NCBI RefSeq assembly: GCF_000014785.1
Contig: NC_008340.1
Span: forward strand, 2,130,001 to 2,162,000
Direction: 5' to 3'
Length of the DNA: 32,000 nt
DNA from: Alkalilimnicola ehrlichii MLHE-1
GTDB taxonomy: Bacteria; Pseudomonadota; Gammaproteobacteria; Nitrococcales; Halorhodospiraceae
Shown one piece after another: positions 20,972-30,802 of this stretch. The translations under genes and the position numbers were made by a program. The notes below the pieces were generated by a model that did no database searches, was not told where the DNA came from, and saw only the letters and a program-made list of their open reading frames with translations. Positions within the stretch are counted from its first letter, which is position 1, and the number at the start of each line of letters is the position of its first letter.

Positions 20972-21412
20972 TCAAACGACTGGGGAATCGAAACGGTGCC
21001 CCTCGCCGAGACAAAACCGCAGCCAGCGGTTCAGGAACCGGTTGGCACGCCAGCGCCACGCCAGCGACGGCCCTTGGTCGCGGGCCTTGCCGCGCCGCCC
21101 CCGGCCCACCACCTCGGCGACCCGGGCGTCGTAATAGATGCGCACCCGCAGGGCGGGCAGCGCCTCGGGCCCCAGTGCCGCCCCGCCCGCGAACTGGTGA
21201 GTCAGAAAGTAGGTGCGGGTATAGGGGGTGGACTCGAGCAACTCGGCGTGCAGCGCCGCGCCCCGGGCCATCGGGCTGACCCGACAGAGGCCGTGCTCGG
21301 CCTCAGGCAGCAGCCGCCGGAGGAAGAGATAGTTCGACTCGTACAGCTCCATCAGGCCGCTGAAACTGGGCCCGGCCCGCTGACGGTCCAACGCTGGCGA
21401 CAAGTGCATCAT
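20972..21412 (-). CDS. DUF1249 family protein (YqiB-like)
   Basis: [30 protein letters not shown] and [17 protein letters not shown] parallel E. coli YqiB (LCEMNFSQLRRLLP, TVRLYHDAMVAEV, INQFLADWLRYCLAHG) as I recall it. The start is uncertain: ATG at 21412 or 21409, or GTG at 21466. Confidence 0.78.
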
Positions 21413-24887: not shown

Positions 24888-25937
24888 TCAGAAGTCGATC
24901 CGTAACCCCACAGAGACGCCATAGGGGTCTTCACCCGGGGTATCCATCTCCGGGTCGGCGGAACGGGACTGGCGGTAGGGGGTCAGATCCCCTTCGTCAT
25001 CGTTGTCCAGCCACGCCAGGCGCAGATAGACCCGCACGCTGTCCGCCAGGAAGCGCTCGGCACCCAGCGCGTACATCGTCGCGTCCAGGTCATCGCCATC
25101 CCTCGCGTCCACCGTGTAGACCTGCGCCAGAAGCCGGTTCACCCCGAAGGCATAGGTCACAGAGCCACCCAGGGCCCAGCTGTCCGGATCACGCGTGGAC
25201 TGGTAAAGACCGGTCAGCCGCCAGTCGCCAAGCCCCTGGCTGGCCGCCACCCGCCAGATGGTCGGTGTCTCACCGGCCCGGTAACGCTCATAGCCGAGTC
25301 CCACCCAGGTCGCGTCCCGCTCATAGTCGAGCATCGCGCTCCAGGCCTCGTCATCGTTATCGCTGGCGCTGCCGTCACCTTCCGCGTCGGCGGAGTAATG
25401 CAACTGCGCACCCAGTCCCTGGTAGCGGGGGGTGGTGTAGTTGAGGGAATTCTTCAGACGGCGGTCAAAGTTCACCCGCAGGTCCCGGTCATCATAGGCG
25501 GCCGTGTTCAGGCGCAGGATGTTTCGGGCGTCCCCCACGCTGTCGCTGAACGGGTCCACGTTGCTGCGCATGCGCTTTACCGGCGTGTCAATCCGACCGG
25601 CGCGCAGCAGCCCCCAGGGGCCCTCCAGGCCCGCGAAGGTGTTGCGCAAGGTCAGCTCATCGCTGCTGTCATCCTCGTTCAGCGCCGCCTGTATCTCCAC
25701 CTGGTAGACGGCGCGCAGGCGGTCATCATCCAACAGCACTTGGCCGCGCAAACCCAAGCGACTGGAGTTGTCCGAGAGGTGGCGCGAGGTGCCATCGCCG
25801 TTGTTCAGCACGTCGGCCGAGAGGTGCAGCCGCCCGTAGAGCTCAGGCCAGTCCAGCGGCTGCGCCACGGCGGGTAACGCCACCAGCAGCGACAGGCCGC
25901 CGACAGCCACGAAGCGAATCCCCGATTGCCTAATCAA
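24888..25937 (-). CDS. outer-membrane general porin (Gram-negative porin family)
   Basis: The signal peptide is MIRQSGIRFVAVGGLSLLVALPAVA|QP. LYGRLHLS and SSRLGLRG are N-terminal porin motifs, the Tyr/Gly/Asp composition is beta-strand-rich, and the protein ends in a C-terminal Phe (LRIDF). The TTG start at 25937 lies 8 nt after AAGGAG. Confidence 0.8.
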   Translation of the reverse strand: MIRQSGIRFVAVGGLSLLVALPAVAQPLDWPELYGRLHLSADVLNNGDGTSRHLSDNSSRLGLRGQVLLDDDRLRAVYQVEIQAALNEDDSSDELTLRNTFAGLEGPWGLLRAGRIDTPVKRMRSNVDPFSDSVGDARNILRLNTAAYDDRDLRVNFDRRLKNSLNYTTPRYQGLGAQLHYSADAEGDGSASDNDDEAWSAMLDYERDATWVGLGYERYRAGETPTIWRVAASQGLGDWRLTGLYQSTRDPDSWALGGSVTYAFGVNRLLAQVYTVDARDGDDLDATMYALGAERFLADSVRVYLRLAWLDNDDEGDLTPYRQSRSADPEMDTPGEDPYGVSVGLRIDF

Positions 25938-26002
25938 AACGTCATCTCCTTCTCTCCTTTACTGATCTTCCGGAAGGGGGCGCCCTATCTCAGCCCCCCG
26001 GA

Positions 26003-28195
26003 TCAGTCGATCAAATCCAGGCGCAGTCGCCCCTCCGCCTCCCATTGGCGCAGGCGTTCACGCGCTTCGGGTGGAGCGAGACCCCGTTGCTCGACCAACA
26101 CTCCAGTCAACGCCTCCCGCAACCCCCGGCCCAGGGTGCTCGCCTTGCCACAGGCGTAAAGCAGGGCATCGCGCCGCTCCAGCCAGTCCAGCAGCTCCGC
26201 CCCGGCCTCACGGATGCAGTCCGAGACGTAGCGCCCGTCATCCGCATCCCGCGAGAAGGCAGTATCGAGCCGATACAGGTGCCCCTCCTCCAGGCAGCGC
26301 TGCAGGCGCTCCCGGTAGAAGAAGTCCCCCGCCCGTTTTCGATTGCCGAAGAGCAGCCAGGCCGGCCCGGTACGGGGACGGTGAGCCTGTTCGGCCAGAA
26401 ATCCCATAAACGGGGCGATGCCGCAACCCGCAGCCACCATGATCATTGGCCGGTCCGGCGACTCCGGCGGATGGAAGTGGGGATGACGGCGCAGGGTCAT
26501 ATCCAGCGGGGTCCCCACCGGCAGCTGCCGGCAGAGCAGTCCCGAGGCCTCGCCCGGGGTCCCGTCGTCCCGGGTCACCACGGCGACGGTCAACATCAGC
26601 CGCCGTGGGTCCGTCAACGGGGTACTGCCGATGGAGTAGGGACGGGCCGGCGCGCCCGGCGCGGGTCGCACCAGCAGCAAATCCCCGGGCCGGTAGTCCA
26701 GCGGCTCCGCGCACTCGAATACCAAGCTCCAGACTTCATTGGTATCGGGATCGGCCGGATCATTGAGCTGTTGGCGTTGCGCCAGGGTCAGCCGGACCGG
26801 TTGGTCGCCGCCGTCCGGCGCCTCCAGCTCGCCGAGGTCAGTACCGACAGCCCGGCCCACCCGGTCCATCCAGCCCCGCCACGGGCCGGCCGGATCACCA
26901 TCCACCTTGACCAAGGGCAGGACCTCCTCCGCCCCGGAAGTCAGCAGGCGCTGACGCAACCGCTCGCCCGCCGCGCAGAATTGCCGGTAGGACGAGTCGC
27001 CCAGGGCCAACACGGCGAACCTGGCGCCACTCAACCGGCTGCCCGGGAGGGCATCGACAAAGCGGCGCGCGGCGTCAGGCACTTCGCCGTCACCGGTGGT
27101 GGAGATGATCAGCAGGACCTGCCGGAAACCCGGCAGCTCTTCCGGCCGAACCCCCGCCAGGGAGGCCTCCAGCACCCGCTCGCCGCCATCGCGTAGCGCC
27201 TTTGCCGTGGCCCGGGCCCAGCGTGCCGCGGTGCCCGTCTGGCTGCCGTAGGCCACCAGGATGTCGGCGGCGGGATCACCCTCGCGGCGCCGCGCCTGCC
27301 ACTGCCGCCGCAGCCAGACCCAGGTCCCGCTCAGCAGCAGAAAGCCCAGCGCCAATGCGGCTATGCCGTTCAGTGCACCGGAGATGGCACCTGCCCACGT
27401 CCCCTGGTGCAGTGACTGGACCAGCCCGGGGTAGGCGGTGACCCGGGCCACTTCTCCCGGCGTCACCACGTAGGTCACCCGGTTGCCGGTGGCGTCCGCC
27501 CCCTGCAAGGCCACCGAAACCTGGGCAAAGCGCTCGGCTTCGTAAACGGCGACCAGGTCTCCCTGCTGTGCGGCACGCGCGATAGCGGCCGGGAGCGTCA
27601 CTTGGGGCTGGTCACGGTCGAATTCCGGCAGCGCCGGGGTGCCCCATTGCAACGCCAGCAGGGCGCCGGTGGCCGTGACCAGAAAAATCAGTGGCAGGGT
27701 CAACCAGCCCAGCCCGGTGTGCCAGTCACTCAAGGTGTTGCGCAGCCGCGGCCAGGCCAGCCACGGCCCGGTCACGACGATAATCAGCAGGGCGTAGGTC
27801 ACCCACTCCACCAACCCGTCCAGACCCAGTAGAAGGTCCTTGTGCAGGTGACGCACGGTGCGGAAGAAGGACTCACCTGTGGCCCGCTCCACACCGGCCT
27901 CTCCGGTGGTGAGGTCGAAGGGCACCACCCGGCGCTCACCGCGCTGGCTGAAGGTAAGCACCAGTACCCGGTCCGCCTCGAACCGCAACGCCCTCGCCCG
28001 CTGCCGCTGATCCAATCGGTCCAGCCAGGTCAGCGTCTCCGGGACCGCCACGGGCACGTCGGCATCGGGGCCGGCCACCCAGTCCTCGACCACCGGCTGC
28101 ACCGCCAGCAGGCCGCCGGACACAATCAGCACCAGCAGCAGGGGAGCCAGCCCGATACTGAGCCACCGATGTAGCCACAACAGCCTCCGCTTCAA
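26003..28195 (-). CDS. PepSY-associated TM domain fused to flavodoxin and FAD/NAD(P)-binding reductase (CysJ / cytochrome P450 reductase-like flavoprotein)
   Basis: 730 aa. The N-terminal ~300 aa begin WLHRWLSIGLAPLLL and contain about 4 TM segments (PepSY_TM-like). This is followed by flavodoxin (ILVAYGSQTGTA), an FAD site (RPYSIGS) and an NAD(P) site (MVAAGCGIAPFMGF). The start is TTG at 28195. Confidence 0.85.
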   Translation of the reverse strand: MKRRLLWLHRWLSIGLAPLLLVLIVSGGLLAVQPVVEDWVAGPDADVPVAVPETLTWLDRLDQRQRARALRFEADRVLVLTFSQRGERRVVPFDLTTGEAGVERATGESFFRTVRHLHKDLLLGLDGLVEWVTYALLIIVVTGPWLAWPRLRNTLSDWHTGLGWLTLPLIFLVTATGALLALQWGTPALPEFDRDQPQVTLPAAIARAAQQGDLVAVYEAERFAQVSVALQGADATGNRVTYVVTPGEVARVTAYPGLVQSLHQGTWAGAISGALNGIAALALGFLLLSGTWVWLRRQWQARRREGDPAADILVAYGSQTGTAARWARATAKALRDGGERVLEASLAGVRPEELPGFRQVLLIISTTGDGEVPDAARRFVDALPGSRLSGARFAVLALGDSSYRQFCAAGERLRQRLLTSGAEEVLPLVKVDGDPAGPWRGWMDRVGRAVGTDLGELEAPDGGDQPVRLTLAQRQQLNDPADPDTNEVWSLVFECAEPLDYRPGDLLLVRPAPGAPARPYSIGSTPLTDPRRLMLTVAVVTRDDGTPGEASGLLCRQLPVGTPLDMTLRRHPHFHPPESPDRPMIMVAAGCGIAPFMGFLAEQAHRPRTGPAWLLFGNRKRAGDFFYRERLQRCLEEGHLYRLDTAFSRDADDGRYVSDCIREAGAELLDWLERRDALLYACGKASTLGRGLREALTGVLVEQRGLAPPEARERLRQWEAEGRLRLDLID

Positions 28196-28378: not shown

Positions 28379-28597
28379 TCAGCGGCGCGGGGCGGGTTGA
28401 ATCACCAGCCAGTCGTCCAGCAGGTCGGCAGGGAGGGTGCTCATGTTATAGCGCTCGGACAGCTGCGCCTTGACCTCCGCCAGGGCCTGAATCTGATCCT
28501 CCGCCTCCACGGTGAAGGTCTCCTCGGCCAGCTCGCCCAATGAGGCGCGGGCATCCTCCATGGCGCCCGGTTTGATATAGCAGTTCCAGCGGGACAT
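28379..28597 (-). CDS. hypothetical small acidic protein (72 aa)
   Basis: The ATG at 28595-28597 lies 6 nt after AAGGGAGGA. Third-codon positions are G/C-rich like neighbouring genes. I recognise no family. Confidence 0.55.
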   Translation of the reverse strand: MSRWNCYIKPGAMEDARASLGELAEETFTVEAEDQIQALAEVKAQLSERYNMSTLPADLLDDWLVIQPAPRR

Positions 28598-28733
28598 CGG
28601 CGGTCCTCCCTTTCCAAATGGTCTAGACAGTATAGCGGAGCCCGGCCCCTCGTCGGGGGACGGTGGAGAGGGCCGTCGTCCGCTGTGGCGAGGGCCGAGA
28701 GGCCATGATTATGGTGTGGCAATGGACGGACAT

Positions 28734-28771
28734 GGATTGCTTCGTCGCTTCGCTCCTCGCAATGACGGGGG
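28734..28771. repeat. palindromic-element arm GGATTGCTTCGTCGCTTCGCTCCTCGCAATGACGGGGG (inverted relative to the arms at 28811 and 29013)
   Basis: Its reverse complement, CGTCATTGCGAGGAGCGAAGCGACGAAGCAATCC, aligns with CGTCACTGCGAGGAGGCGAAGCCGACGTGGCAGTCT at about 29 of 36 positions. It produces the artefactual peptides MDCFVASLLAMT and HCEERSDEAIH in the ORF track. Confidence 0.85.
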
Positions 28772-28805
28772 TGGTGGCGGCCCACCGTCACTGAGGGATG
28801 GGCAT

Positions 28806-28894
28806 CCCCCCACCGTCACTGCGAGGAGGCGAAGCCGACGTGGCAGTCTACCGCCCTGGATCGCCACGGGCCTGCGGCCCTCGCGATGACGGGG
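28806..28894. repeat. ~88-nt composite repeat unit, copy A (long left arm CACCGTCACTGCGAGG..., short right arm ...CCTCGCGATGACGGGG)
   Basis: The termini CCGTCACTGCGAGG and CCTCGCGATGACGG are inverted repeats that match at 12 of 14 positions. A second copy sits 202 nt downstream. Confidence 0.88.
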
Positions 28895-28960
28895 AGGGGG
28901 GCCTGCGGCCCTCGCGATGACGGGGAGGGGGCCTGCGGCCCTCGCGATGACGGGGAGGGG
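28871..28960. repeat. head-to-tail tandem array, 3 copies of CCTGCGGCCCTCGCGATGACGGGGAGGGGG(G)
   Basis: The copies are at 28871-28901 (31 nt), 28902-28931 (30 nt) and 28932-28960 (29 nt). They are contiguous, with no spacers between them. Confidence 0.9.
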
Positions 28961-29008
28961 CTGGCTAGCCCTCTTGAAGAACTTGACTGTGCCGGAAGCG
29001 GAAAGTCG

Positions 29009-29097
29009 CCCCCACCGTCACTGCGAGGAGGCGAAGCCGACGCGGCAGTCTACCGCCCTGGATCGCCACGGGCCTTCGGCCCTCGCGATGACCGGGG
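29009..29097. repeat. ~88-nt composite repeat unit, copy B
   Basis: It aligns to copy A at a +202 offset, with 2 substitutions (T/C at 28841/29043 and G/T at 28874/29076) and 1 single-nt indel in the shared ~83 nt. Confidence 0.88.
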
Positions 29098-29143
29098 GTG
29101 CCCCGTTCCTCGTTGATTCGGGCCCACGCAGCGGGGAGGGGGG

Positions 29144-29187
29144 CTCGCGATGACGGGGAGGGGGTCGGCGCCCCTCGTGATGACGGG
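29144..29187. repeat. two further right-arm copies (CTCGCGATGACGGGGAGGGGG and CTCGTGATGACGGG)
   Basis: Direct reading places copies at 29144-29164 and 29174-29187. They are in the same orientation as the five other right arms. Confidence 0.8.
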
Positions 29188-29225
29188 TTATTCGGCGCGT
29201 ACTTCCGCGAACGGGGCCCGGCCGA

Positions 29226-29267
29226 TTCACAAGCGTGTGGCATTCCTGATAAATTGGTCAGACAATT
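29226..29267 (+). promoter_or_regulatory. candidate glcD promoter (TTCACA-N16-GATAAA) overlapping palindrome AATTGGTCAGACAATT
   Basis: The -35-like TTCACA is at 29226-29231 and the -10-like GATAAA at 29248-29253. The AATTG-N6-CAATT palindrome is at 29252-29267, and AGACAA is directly repeated at 29260-29265 and 29268-29273. This is the only AT-rich patch upstream of the glcD ATG. Confidence 0.35.
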
Positions 29268-29299
29268 AGACAACTGCCCACCGTTGAGAGACTCCGACC

Positions 29300-30802
29300 A
29301 TGAGCGCGCACTCCGTATACCGCGAGGAGGACTGCCGCTTCGAGTACGATCGCGAGGACCTGATCGCCCGCCTGGGCGGGGTTCTGGACGACCCCGAAGC
29401 GCTGATCACCAACGAAGAGGCCCTACGGGCCTACGAGACCGACGGTCTGGCCGCTTACCGCCAGCTGCCGGTAGCAGCGGTCCTGCCGGACACGGTGGAG
29501 CAGGTGCAGGCCATCCTGCGCATCTGCCATGAGCTGGAGGTGCCGGTGGTGGCCCGTGGTGCGGGCACCAGCCTCTCCGCCGGCGCCCTGCCCCACCCCC
29601 AGGGTATTCTCCTCAGCCTGTCCCGCTTCAACCGCATTCTGGAGGTGGACGCCGAACGGCGCATTGCGCGGGTCCAGCCCGGGGTGCGCAACCTGGCGGT
29701 GTCCGAGGCCGCGGCCCCCTACGGGCTTTACTACGCCCCGGACCCCTCCTCGCAAATTGCCTGCAGCATCGGCGGCAACGTGGCGGAGAACGCCGGCGGG
29801 GTGCACTGCCTGAAGTATGGCCTGACCATCCACAACGTCCTCGAGGCCACCCTGATCACCATCGACGGCGATGTCATCAAGGTGGGCAGCGAGGCGCCGG
29901 ACGCCCCCGGATACGACCTGCTGGCGGCGGTGATCGGCTCCGAGGGCATGCTCGGCGTGGTGGTGGAGGTGGCGGTCAAGCTGCTGCCCGAGCCGTTGAC
30001 CAAGAAGGTGATGCTGGCCGCCTTCCCCACCGTCGAGGCCGGCGGCGAGGCGGTGGCCGGGATCATCGGCGACGGCATCATCCCCGGTGGCCTGGAGATG
30101 ATGGACAACGCCGCCATCCGCGCCGCCGAGGACTTCGTCCACGCCGGCTACCCGGTGGATGCCGCCACCATCCTGATCTGCGAGCTGGACGGCAGTGAGG
30201 CGGAGGTGGCCGCCCAGTGCGACCGGGTGCGCAAGCTGATGGAGCGCTACGGGGCCACCGAAATCCGCATCGCCGAGACCCCCGAACAGGCGCAGCGCTT
30301 CTGGGCCGGGCGCAAGGCGGCCTTTCCCGCGGTGGGCCGTATCTCCCCCGACTACTACTGCATGGACGGCACCATCCCACGCAAGCACCTGGGCACGGTG
30401 CTCAAGCGCATGCAGGCCCTCTCCGAGCAGTACGGCCTGCGGGTGGTGAACGTCTTTCACGCCGGTGACGGCAACCTGCACCCGCTGGTGCTCTACGACG
30501 GCAACGTCCCGGGCGAGCTGGAACGCACCGAGGAGCTGGGCGGGCGCATCCTGGAGTTGTGTGTGGAGGTCGGCGGCACGGTCACCGGCGAGCACGGCGT
30601 GGGCATGGAGAAGCTCGACCAGATGTGCGTGCAGTTCAACAAGGCGGAGCGCGAGCAGTTCTTCGCCCTCAAGCGCGCCTTCGATCCCAAGGGGCTGCTC
30701 AACCCCGGCAAGGCCATCCCCACCCTGCACCGCTGCGCCGAGTTCGGCGCCATGCACGTGCACCACGGCGAACTGCCCTTCCCGGACATCGAGCGCTTCT
30801 GA
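29300..30802 (+). CDS. glcD: glycolate oxidase subunit GlcD (FAD-linked oxidase)
   Basis: 500 aa. An FAD-binding PCMH domain (VVARGAGTSLSAGAL and GGNVAENAGG) and a C-terminal GEHGVG motif are present. It is followed by glcE and glcF. Confidence 0.93.
   Translation: MSAHSVYREEDCRFEYDREDLIARLGGVLDDPEALITNEEALRAYETDGLAAYRQLPVAAVLPDTVEQVQAILRICHELEVPVVARGAGTSLSAGALPHPQGILLSLSRFNRILEVDAERRIARVQPGVRNLAVSEAAAPYGLYYAPDPSSQIACSIGGNVAENAGGVHCLKYGLTIHNVLEATLITIDGDVIKVGSEAPDAPGYDLLAAVIGSEGMLGVVVEVAVKLLPEPLTKKVMLAAFPTVEAGGEAVAGIIGDGIIPGGLEMMDNAAIRAAEDFVHAGYPVDAATILICELDGSEAEVAAQCDRVRKLMERYGATEIRIAETPEQAQRFWAGRKAAFPAVGRISPDYYCMDGTIPRKHLGTVLKRMQALSEQYGLRVVNVFHAGDGNLHPLVLYDGNVPGELERTEELGGRILELCVEVGGTVTGEHGVGMEKLDQMCVQFNKAEREQFFALKRAFDPKGLLNPGKAIPTLHRCAEFGAMHVHHGELPFPDIERF

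Follow-up and report, generated by a model that had tools for sequence, protein, structure and literature searches.

The Repeat Field Upstream of glcD

In the gammaproteobacterium Alkalilimnicola ehrlichii MLHE-1, a window of 32,000 nucleotides (nt), that is, the whole stretch of DNA analyzed here, contains a field of palindromic repeats which are probably of the repetitive extragenic palindromic (REP) type. The field lies between a minus-strand open reading frame (ORF) of 72 amino acids (28379–28597) and glcD, after which come genes resembling glcE and glcF. It is built from a short arm with a CGTC tag at its 5′ end and holds two dimers of this arm, one solitary canonical arm, five truncated arms, a 30/31-nt tandem array, and a species-specific module of 50 nt. 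The record analyzed is that of the re-sequenced type strain (CP183314). Two short-read assemblies support the edges of the field only (up to 28757 and from 29131), so the copy number in the interior depends on the hybrid long-read assembly.

An earlier note on the window had counted seven termini in the same orientation and three complementary ones, and both counts are confirmed. The motif CTCGYRATGACSGG has seven exact matches, all on the plus strand (28756, 28880, 28911, 28941, 29082, 29144, and 29174), where shuffling predicts 0.18 and none of 100 shuffles reached seven. Likewise, CCCACCGTCACTG at 28781, 28809, and 29011 places the complementary terminus CACCGTCACTG at 28783, 28811, and 29013. 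The terminus is also, as had been said, confined to the glcD-side field within the window, while a second field of the same genome lies just outside it, in the hrcA–nadK spacer.

On the left, the field is preceded by a segment (28650–28732) that, in an alignment of the orthologous spacers, is present in both A. ehrlichii strains (MLHE-1 and SGAR-12) and absent in Alkalispirillum mobile. It carries degenerate arm-like fragments such as GCGAGGGCCGAGAGGCC, presumably decayed arms. The complete solitary canonical arm follows (28733–28767, minus strand, reading CGTCATTGCGAGGAGCGAAGCGACGAAGCAATCC(A)), whose 35 nt are 100% identical to a sequence on plasmids of Methylosinus trichosporium OB3b. With the arm at 28814–28848 it makes up a pair whose tags point inward. 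A hairpin between these long arms (28734–28771 and 28811–28850) had been suggested as possible, with a spacer of about 45 nt; as single-stranded DNA they do pair (−43 kcal/mol, z = −7.4), the spacer being 39 nt. Between them lies a truncated arm (28786–28808, plus strand) of which only the head, CGTCACTGAGGG, is left; after it comes a small, unrelated hairpin, GGGATGGGCATCCC. In the second field, too, this truncated head stands in front of the full unit.

The central part of the field is formed by an 88-nt unit that occurs twice (28807–28894 and 29009–29096) with 97% identity. Each copy comprises a dimer with outward tags, given on the plus strand, together with C-rich and G-rich flanks in the first. 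In dimer 1 (28814–28891), arm A′ (28814–28848) has the outer stem ACTGC/GCAGT and the mini-hairpin GGC-GAA-GCC, and arm B (28856–28891, minus strand), separated from it by a 7-nt spacer, has ATCGC/GCGAT and GGCC-GCA-GGCC. Dimer 2 (29016–29093) consists of A′ (29016–29050) and B (29058–29093), the tag of the latter being altered to GGTC. The tandem array (28868–28960, plus strand) was detected by Tandem Repeats Finder with a period of 30/31, 3.0 copies, and 96–98% matches. Its unit combines a G-rich flank with the mini-hairpin, half-stem, and tag that form the outer portion of arm B; partial arms of the array lie at 28899–28922 and 28930–28952. To the right of dimer 2 follows the species-specific module GGGGGTGCCCCGTTCCTCGTTGATTCGGGCCCACGCAGC... 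(29094–29143, plus strand), which shows 87–90% identity over 30–39 nt to positions 21022–21060 of locus L001 in the second field and has no match in any other locus collected. A left-hand "CCTCTTGAAGAAC" module was considered as a second shared flank or target palindrome and rejected, being too short for significance and found nowhere else. The field closes with two truncated arms on the plus strand (within 29144–29187), consisting of tag and half-stem only: CTCGCGATGACG (29144–29155) and CTCGTGATGACG (29174–29185).

Beyond the field, a glcD promoter-like site with a palindromic operator-like sequence (29226–29275, plus strand) marks its right boundary. The promoter is sigma-70-like (TTCACA-18-TAAATT, 29226–29255), and the site is retained in relatives without the field. 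Since these conserved promoter-like and operator-like sites lie downstream of the repeats, the field is located upstream of both core promoters. Palindromic operator-like sites are in fact present on both sides, ATGGTCTAGACAGTATAG next to the small ORF (28618–28636) and AAATTGGTCAGACAATTAGACAA next to glcD (29251–29275); both resemble FadR/GntR-type operators. The glcD-side site is kept in Alkalispirillum mobile and in a metagenomic relative, the other one only in A. mobile.

Distribution of the Repeat Family

The statement in the earlier note that the repeat is scattered over unrelated genomes is borne out. The 35-nt core has a 100% match in the Methylosinus trichosporium plasmids and was also found in 36 contigs of the IMG/VR database. 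In a genome collection scanned for a pattern of 27 nt it turned up in at least 120 stretches, the A. ehrlichii genome itself not being among the matches listed. Four metagenomic loci were added, these being the true copies among 13 matches of a metagenome scan, of which the other nine are chance matches within coding sequence. The loci collected in this way (L numbers) are the basis of the family-wide figures given below. The family occurs at more than 150 loci, in roughly 100 species, mostly in Alphaproteobacteria, with some in Betaproteobacteria and a few in other phyla. One record, L153 (NZ_VCCH02000043.1), is titled Mycobacterium sp. KBS0706 and carries arms that match the type of the Inquilinus loci, which is unexpected for an actinobacterium; the record may be mislabeled or contaminated.

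The heterodimer type of dimer 1 is found again in the second field and in the metagenome contigs L177, L180, L181, and L183. In an unrelated metagenomic organism, the same heterodimer is present in at least six fields, tandem partial arms included, with three 28-nt copies of the latter at L181 361–445. Tandem partial arms with a period of 28–31 nt were encountered in three independent fields, and they are variable between strains.

Regarding genomic placement, spacers between convergent genes are enriched for the elements (36% vs 20% of all spacers, chi-square p = 0.0008), and those between divergent genes are depleted (12% vs 17%) and represent the least used location of the family. No gene family recurs beside the elements at the loci collected, apart from a gene-transfer-agent/phage-tail-like protein of the "viral" contigs, which is an ordinary neighbor and not a transposase. 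On one IMG/VR contig (L013 3171–9371), presumably alphaproteobacterial, a gene-transfer-agent/phage-tail-like cluster has an element in nearly every gap (seven sites in 6 kb). This suggests that the "viral" IMG/VR matches are ordinary chromosomal regions. A text search of the literature with the exact DNA and peptide strings of the repeat returned chance primer matches or nothing.

Architecture of Arms and Dimers

The arm measures about 29–37 nt. It starts with the 5′ CGTC tag, preceded by a pyrimidine (Y). Next come A(T/C)(T/C)GC, the first strand of an outer stem of 5 bp, then an internal loop and a G+C-rich mini-hairpin whose stem is closed by a C(GNA)G triloop. The matching half-stem GC(A/G)(A/G)T and a CCA(G) tail complete the arm, the canonical form being CGTC-ATTGC...GCAAT-CCAG. 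Two arms with their tags outward give a dimer of 78–88 nt. Full elements extend from CGTCATTGCGAG to CTCGCAATGACG; their lengths peak sharply at 85–89 nt, and the spacer between the two arms is variable (about 12–25 nt). In 91% of these elements the base before the tag is Y, positions −1/+1 being Y/R, with C-rich sequence to the left of the element and G-rich sequence to its right. Pairs with outward tags predominate (154 vs 25 juxtapositions with inward tags), and many arms have no partner (71 heads and 76 tails). The canonical dimer folds with −44 kcal/mol (z = −10.6).

The field in the window conforms to this plan in a diverged form. Every complete arm carries CGTC, one GGTC variant aside. 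Both 78-nt dimer cores are diverged heterodimers of an ACTGC/GCAGT arm and an ATCGC/GCGAT arm, in which the first pair is kept and the second or the third is compensated. The tails read CCAT or CCAG at three arms and are degenerate (TCTA) at both A′ arms. The same pattern holds across the family: among 137 arms not chosen by the search patterns, the head dinucleotide differs from TT in 31, and in 29 of these the arm's own 3′ half compensates, as compared with a mean of 3.2 and a maximum of 9 in 1000 shuffling trials. Three compensated types exist (TC/GA, CT/AG, and TG/CA), and differing types are joined within one dimer; the pairing that is preserved is therefore not the one between two arms. 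The conserved unit is the single arm, and pairing is kept within each arm.

A further recurrent feature is the mini-hairpin, with a stem of 2–7 bp and a 3-nt GNA loop. On the tag strand, the triloop is GAA, GCA, GTA, or GGA, closed by C–G, in 224 of 262 arms and on 56 different stems. This is the d(GCGNAGC) mini-hairpin, whose stability is exceptional in DNA and greater there than in RNA (PMC13037366; PMC3201870) and is reportedly missed by standard thermodynamic models (PMC13037366). At three loci (L020 1985–2110, L065 6115–6229, and L078 3522–3645), the place of the mini-hairpin is taken by a different, longer palindromic module (…CCAACGGGTCCG…CGGCCCGATGACAGGCTC…), which suggests that a second repeat family has been combined with this one in a modular or nested way.

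Gain, Loss, and Copy Number in Alkalilimnicola and Its Relatives

Copies elsewhere in the genome, copies in other taxa, and a spacer of differing length among relatives, on which the earlier note had made a mobile or REP-type interpretation depend, are all found. The second field (L001 20760–21085, CP183314) is located outside the window in the hrcA–nadK spacer, some 11.5 kb downstream of glcD. Its components are the truncated head, one dimer, a tandem run of four partial arms of 30 nt, and the right-hand module that it has in common with the glcD field; over 181 nt it is 90% identical to positions 28781–28958 of the window. Strain SGAR-12 (L189) carries both fields. Its glcD spacer measures 671 nt as against 702 nt in MLHE-1, which is exactly one 31-nt unit fewer, and its hrcA–nadK spacer measures 434 nt as against 404 nt, one 30-nt unit more (five copies vs four). 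The 30/31-nt units hence behave like variable-number tandem repeats, with a one-copy difference between strains in opposite directions at the two fields. In Alkalispirillum mobile, whose GlcD falls in the same 90% identity cluster, both fields are absent: the orthologous spacers have 166 and 70 nt, and no terminus occurs in 21.5 kb. The metagenomic relative likewise has a glcD spacer, of 266 nt, without elements. The promoter-proximal flanks are kept in SGAR-12, Alkalispirillum mobile, and the metagenomic relative.

The neighboring genes show differences of their own. The 72-aa ORF (28379–28597, minus strand) has no Pfam domain; homologues with 51–62% identity occur in Natronocella, Aquisalimonas, and metagenomic sequences, and a 94%-identical cluster includes Alkalispirillum mobile. 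It adjoins glcD in Alkalilimnicola and Alkalispirillum, its neighbor in Natronocella is a long fused FAD-oxidase/Fe-S protein, and in Aquisalimonas there is no adjacent FAD-oxidase gene. Farther to the left (24888–28195), A. ehrlichii and the metagenomic relative carry a porin gene and a PepSY_TM/flavodoxin/NAD-binding reductase gene in the interval from ppsA to the small ORF, a place where Alkalispirillum mobile (L191) lacks both.

Comparison with Known Repeat Systems

The closest relatives are the CGTC-tagged REPs, of which Di Nocera, De Gregorio and Rocco (BMC Genomics 2013; PMC3733652) defined the families CGTC-1 to CGTC-4. In the text of that paper, to which the comparison in this paragraph refers throughout, these repeats have an unpaired CGTC tag, a stem starting with AT, a CCA tail, and dimers with outward tags, are found mainly in Alphaproteobacteria, and have no transposase. 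The repeat described here shares the unpaired 5′ CGTC tag in the arms of the window (TGTC and CCTC variants fall within the superfamily definition), the A–T and T–A pairs that open the stem of the canonical arm, and the 3-nt CCA tail. It also shares the predominance of outward dimers, the mostly alphaproteobacterial range with scattered occurrences in other phyla, the lack of a dedicated transposase, and the preference for co-directional and convergent spacers, with some copies within ORFs. However, the published stems are continuous over 8–9 bp and have loops of 4–5 nt, whereas here a 5-bp outer stem, an internal loop, and a GNA mini-hairpin of 2–7 bp follow one another. The peptides listed there (SFPRKRES/VIPAKAGI, VIAGLDPAIH, VIPWLDHGI, and RHSELVSGS) do not include the RHCEERSDEAI and DCF..LAMT of this repeat. 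Clusters are described as rare, while the copies of A. ehrlichii, a species outside the strains analyzed in that work, are clustered. The authors of PMC3733652 also mention that bulged variants may have escaped detection. As judged from this textual description, the repeat is a member of the CGTC REP superfamily outside CGTC-1 to CGTC-4, although it may equal a variant that is listed there, e.g., the Bradyrhizobium CGTC-1 with unusual loops.

Similarities extend to other systems. REPINs (REP doublets forming hairpins) and their REP-associated tyrosine transposases (RAYTs) are reportedly treated by Bertels and Rainey (2011) and Nunvar et al. (2010), and PMC3733652 gives a summary of them. Like REPINs, the elements consist of two inverted REP units with a short, less conserved spacer that form a long hairpin, are dispersed over intergenic copies, and show no target-site duplication; their solitary units resemble decayed dimers. 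Unlike in the REPIN/RAYT system, the tag is CGTC and not GTAG, and no RAYT gene flanked by units was seen in about 170 loci. A search with E. coli RayT gave a single homologue in these loci (54% identity, L140 49–576, Rhodopseudomonas sp. B29), at 3.6 kb from the nearest element. Moreover, REPIN sequences are typically lineage- and RAYT-specific, whereas the sequence of the present arm hardly changes between classes and phyla. Bacterial interspersed mosaic elements (BIMEs) and, compared by description only, Rhizobium-specific intergenic mosaic elements (RIMEs) resemble the field in that whole and partial palindromic units are combined with other short modules in one intergenic region and in that composite arrangements recur at several loci; the unit sequences differ, again by description only for RIMEs.

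Interpretation and Alternative Readings

Taken together, the field is read here, with a probability of roughly 0.8, as a cluster of CGTC-tagged REP-type repeats, i.e., selfish or near-neutral DNA, neither coding nor autonomous, that built up in the A. ehrlichii lineage in the spacer of a divergent gene pair. It is an ordinary kind of intergenic DNA and not a special regulatory device. The first reading of the window had proposed a hotspot of REP- or MITE-like insertions (MITE, miniature inverted-repeat transposable element), a structured element, or a protein-binding array. The REP-like half of the first proposal is upheld by the family, the second field, and the variation of the spacer; the MITE-like half is not, because target-site duplications are absent and the conserved unit is the single arm. 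For the structured-RNA and binding-array options no support was found. The association with a catabolic promoter looks incidental, given that the conserved core promoter and operator of glcD are both downstream of the field and that divergent spacers are the least used by the family as a whole.

Mechanistically, the active form of the arms would be a hairpin of single-stranded DNA formed by the tag strand, a proposal derived from the unusual stability of C(GNA)G as a DNA mini-hairpin. They would be copied or moved in trans, without target duplication, by a single-strand-specific enzyme encoded elsewhere (of the Y1/HUH or another type), and the tandem partial arms would grow and shrink by slippage. 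At the glcD locus, the field probably does little beyond lengthening the spacer and may be regarded as essentially neutral filler between two promoters.

Several observations speak against this interpretation or restrict it. The word "mobile" would refer here to presence/absence and dispersal as read from the sequences rather than to an observed event. Inherited subfamilies of arms, instead of repeated selection, could be part of the reason for the compensating changes. Single arms fold no better than shuffled sequences (z = 0 to −0.8, standard DNA parameters), for which a mini-hairpin stability outside these parameters may account, and the dimers of the window itself are weak hairpins (z about −2). 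The copy count in A. ehrlichii spans about 41 kb only, with two fields, and the 10% divergence between them means that any spread within the genome is not recent. Finally, the orthologous "empty" spacers are not clean empty sites, their middle parts being unrelated sequence, and the element might instead have been lost by deletion in the relatives.

A variant of this interpretation, which we consider improbable, would make the repeat a distinct class of single-strand-active elements, characterized by the ATTGC/GCAAT arm and the C(GNA)G mini-hairpin and copied by an enzyme not encoded beside the repeats. The copying would fall either to a host function of wide conservation or to a mobile enzyme with a broad host range, which would explain the identity of a 35-nt arm between an alpha- and a gammaproteobacterium. 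The tandem partial arms would then be footprints of copying, e.g., by repeated nick-and-restart at the mini-hairpin, and not the result of plain slippage.

Considerably less likely is a role in structured RNA, for which the units would be retained as genes or cis-elements, whether for a small RNA, a hairpin that stabilizes mRNA, or a terminator. Long hairpins do form, pairs are retained through compensating changes, and the enrichment between convergent genes fits the suggestion, made in the text of PMC3733652, that many REPs are transcribed. Yet Rfam 15 gave no match in the window at the gathering score and only chance-level ones (E ≥ 0.2) in 28600–29300, nor did any match fall on the elements of eight loci with canonical copies. 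Sequence conservation resides in the stems, with variation in loops and inserts, the opposite of what is typical of functional RNAs. Orientation relative to transcription is unbiased (31 vs 24), terminator-like T runs were not found, the GNA triloop is a DNA-stable motif, the glcD-locus field is upstream of both core promoters, and glcDEF is retained in relatives without it. Separately from the repeat, Rfam matches were noted on Inquilinus limosus contigs, namely, a whalefall-1 RNA (L083 7753–7804) and an alphaproteobacterial S-adenosylmethionine (SAM) riboswitch (L044 3623–3699).

The field might also be an array of binding sites with TGACG cores at 30–31 nt, occupied by a regulator of glcDEF or of the small ORF or by a nucleoid organizer. 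This is very unlikely, even though E. coli REP clusters bind IHF and gyrase, the termini are regularly spaced in both fields, and the repeats sit between divergent promoters. The same composite stands in the unrelated hrcA–nadK spacer, the number of units varies between strains, the family is dispersed over unrelated contexts in several phyla, and Alkalispirillum mobile and the metagenomic relative keep promoter and operator without any array.

Slighter still is the prospect that a DDE-type insertion sequence gave rise to the units as MITEs, whose terminal inverted repeats would be the 12-nt CGTCATTGCGAG ends. Although these termini are perfectly inverted, the lengths peak at 85–89 nt, and elements are present or absent at orthologous sites, no target-site duplication was detected, the direct repeats flanking 151 elements being as long as in the shuffled control. 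Furthermore, about 1.3 Mb of flanking sequence revealed no transposase gene carrying such ends, solitary arms are common, and pairing is kept within arms instead of between ends.

Least credible of all is a local duplication or assembly artefact without any family: tandem units are present, the genome was assembled from low-coverage long reads, and short-read assemblies fail to cross the interior, but more than 150 independent loci, the second field in the same genome, and the reproduction of both fields in the independently assembled strain SGAR-12 refute it as far as the existence of the field is concerned and leave the exact number of tandem units alone exposed to assembly error. The short-read break points were discarded as proof of genome-wide copies, as the repetition inside the field is enough by itself to interrupt a de Bruijn assembly.

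Significance

The field accounts for the oddly long glcD spacer of A. ehrlichii and for the breaks of short-read assemblies at this site. For annotators it carries a warning, since ORFs of the RHCEERSDEAI or LLAMT type are not to be called. The 30/31-nt arrays could serve for strain typing in Alkalilimnicola. Beyond the locus, the repeat retains some interest because CGTC-tagged REPs are, to our knowledge, the one large REP superfamily still without a known mobilizing enzyme. Its identity across phyla, the pairing within each arm, the DNA-stable mini-hairpin on the tag strand, and the strain-variable tandem arrays provide handles for finding the mobilizer and the active strand.

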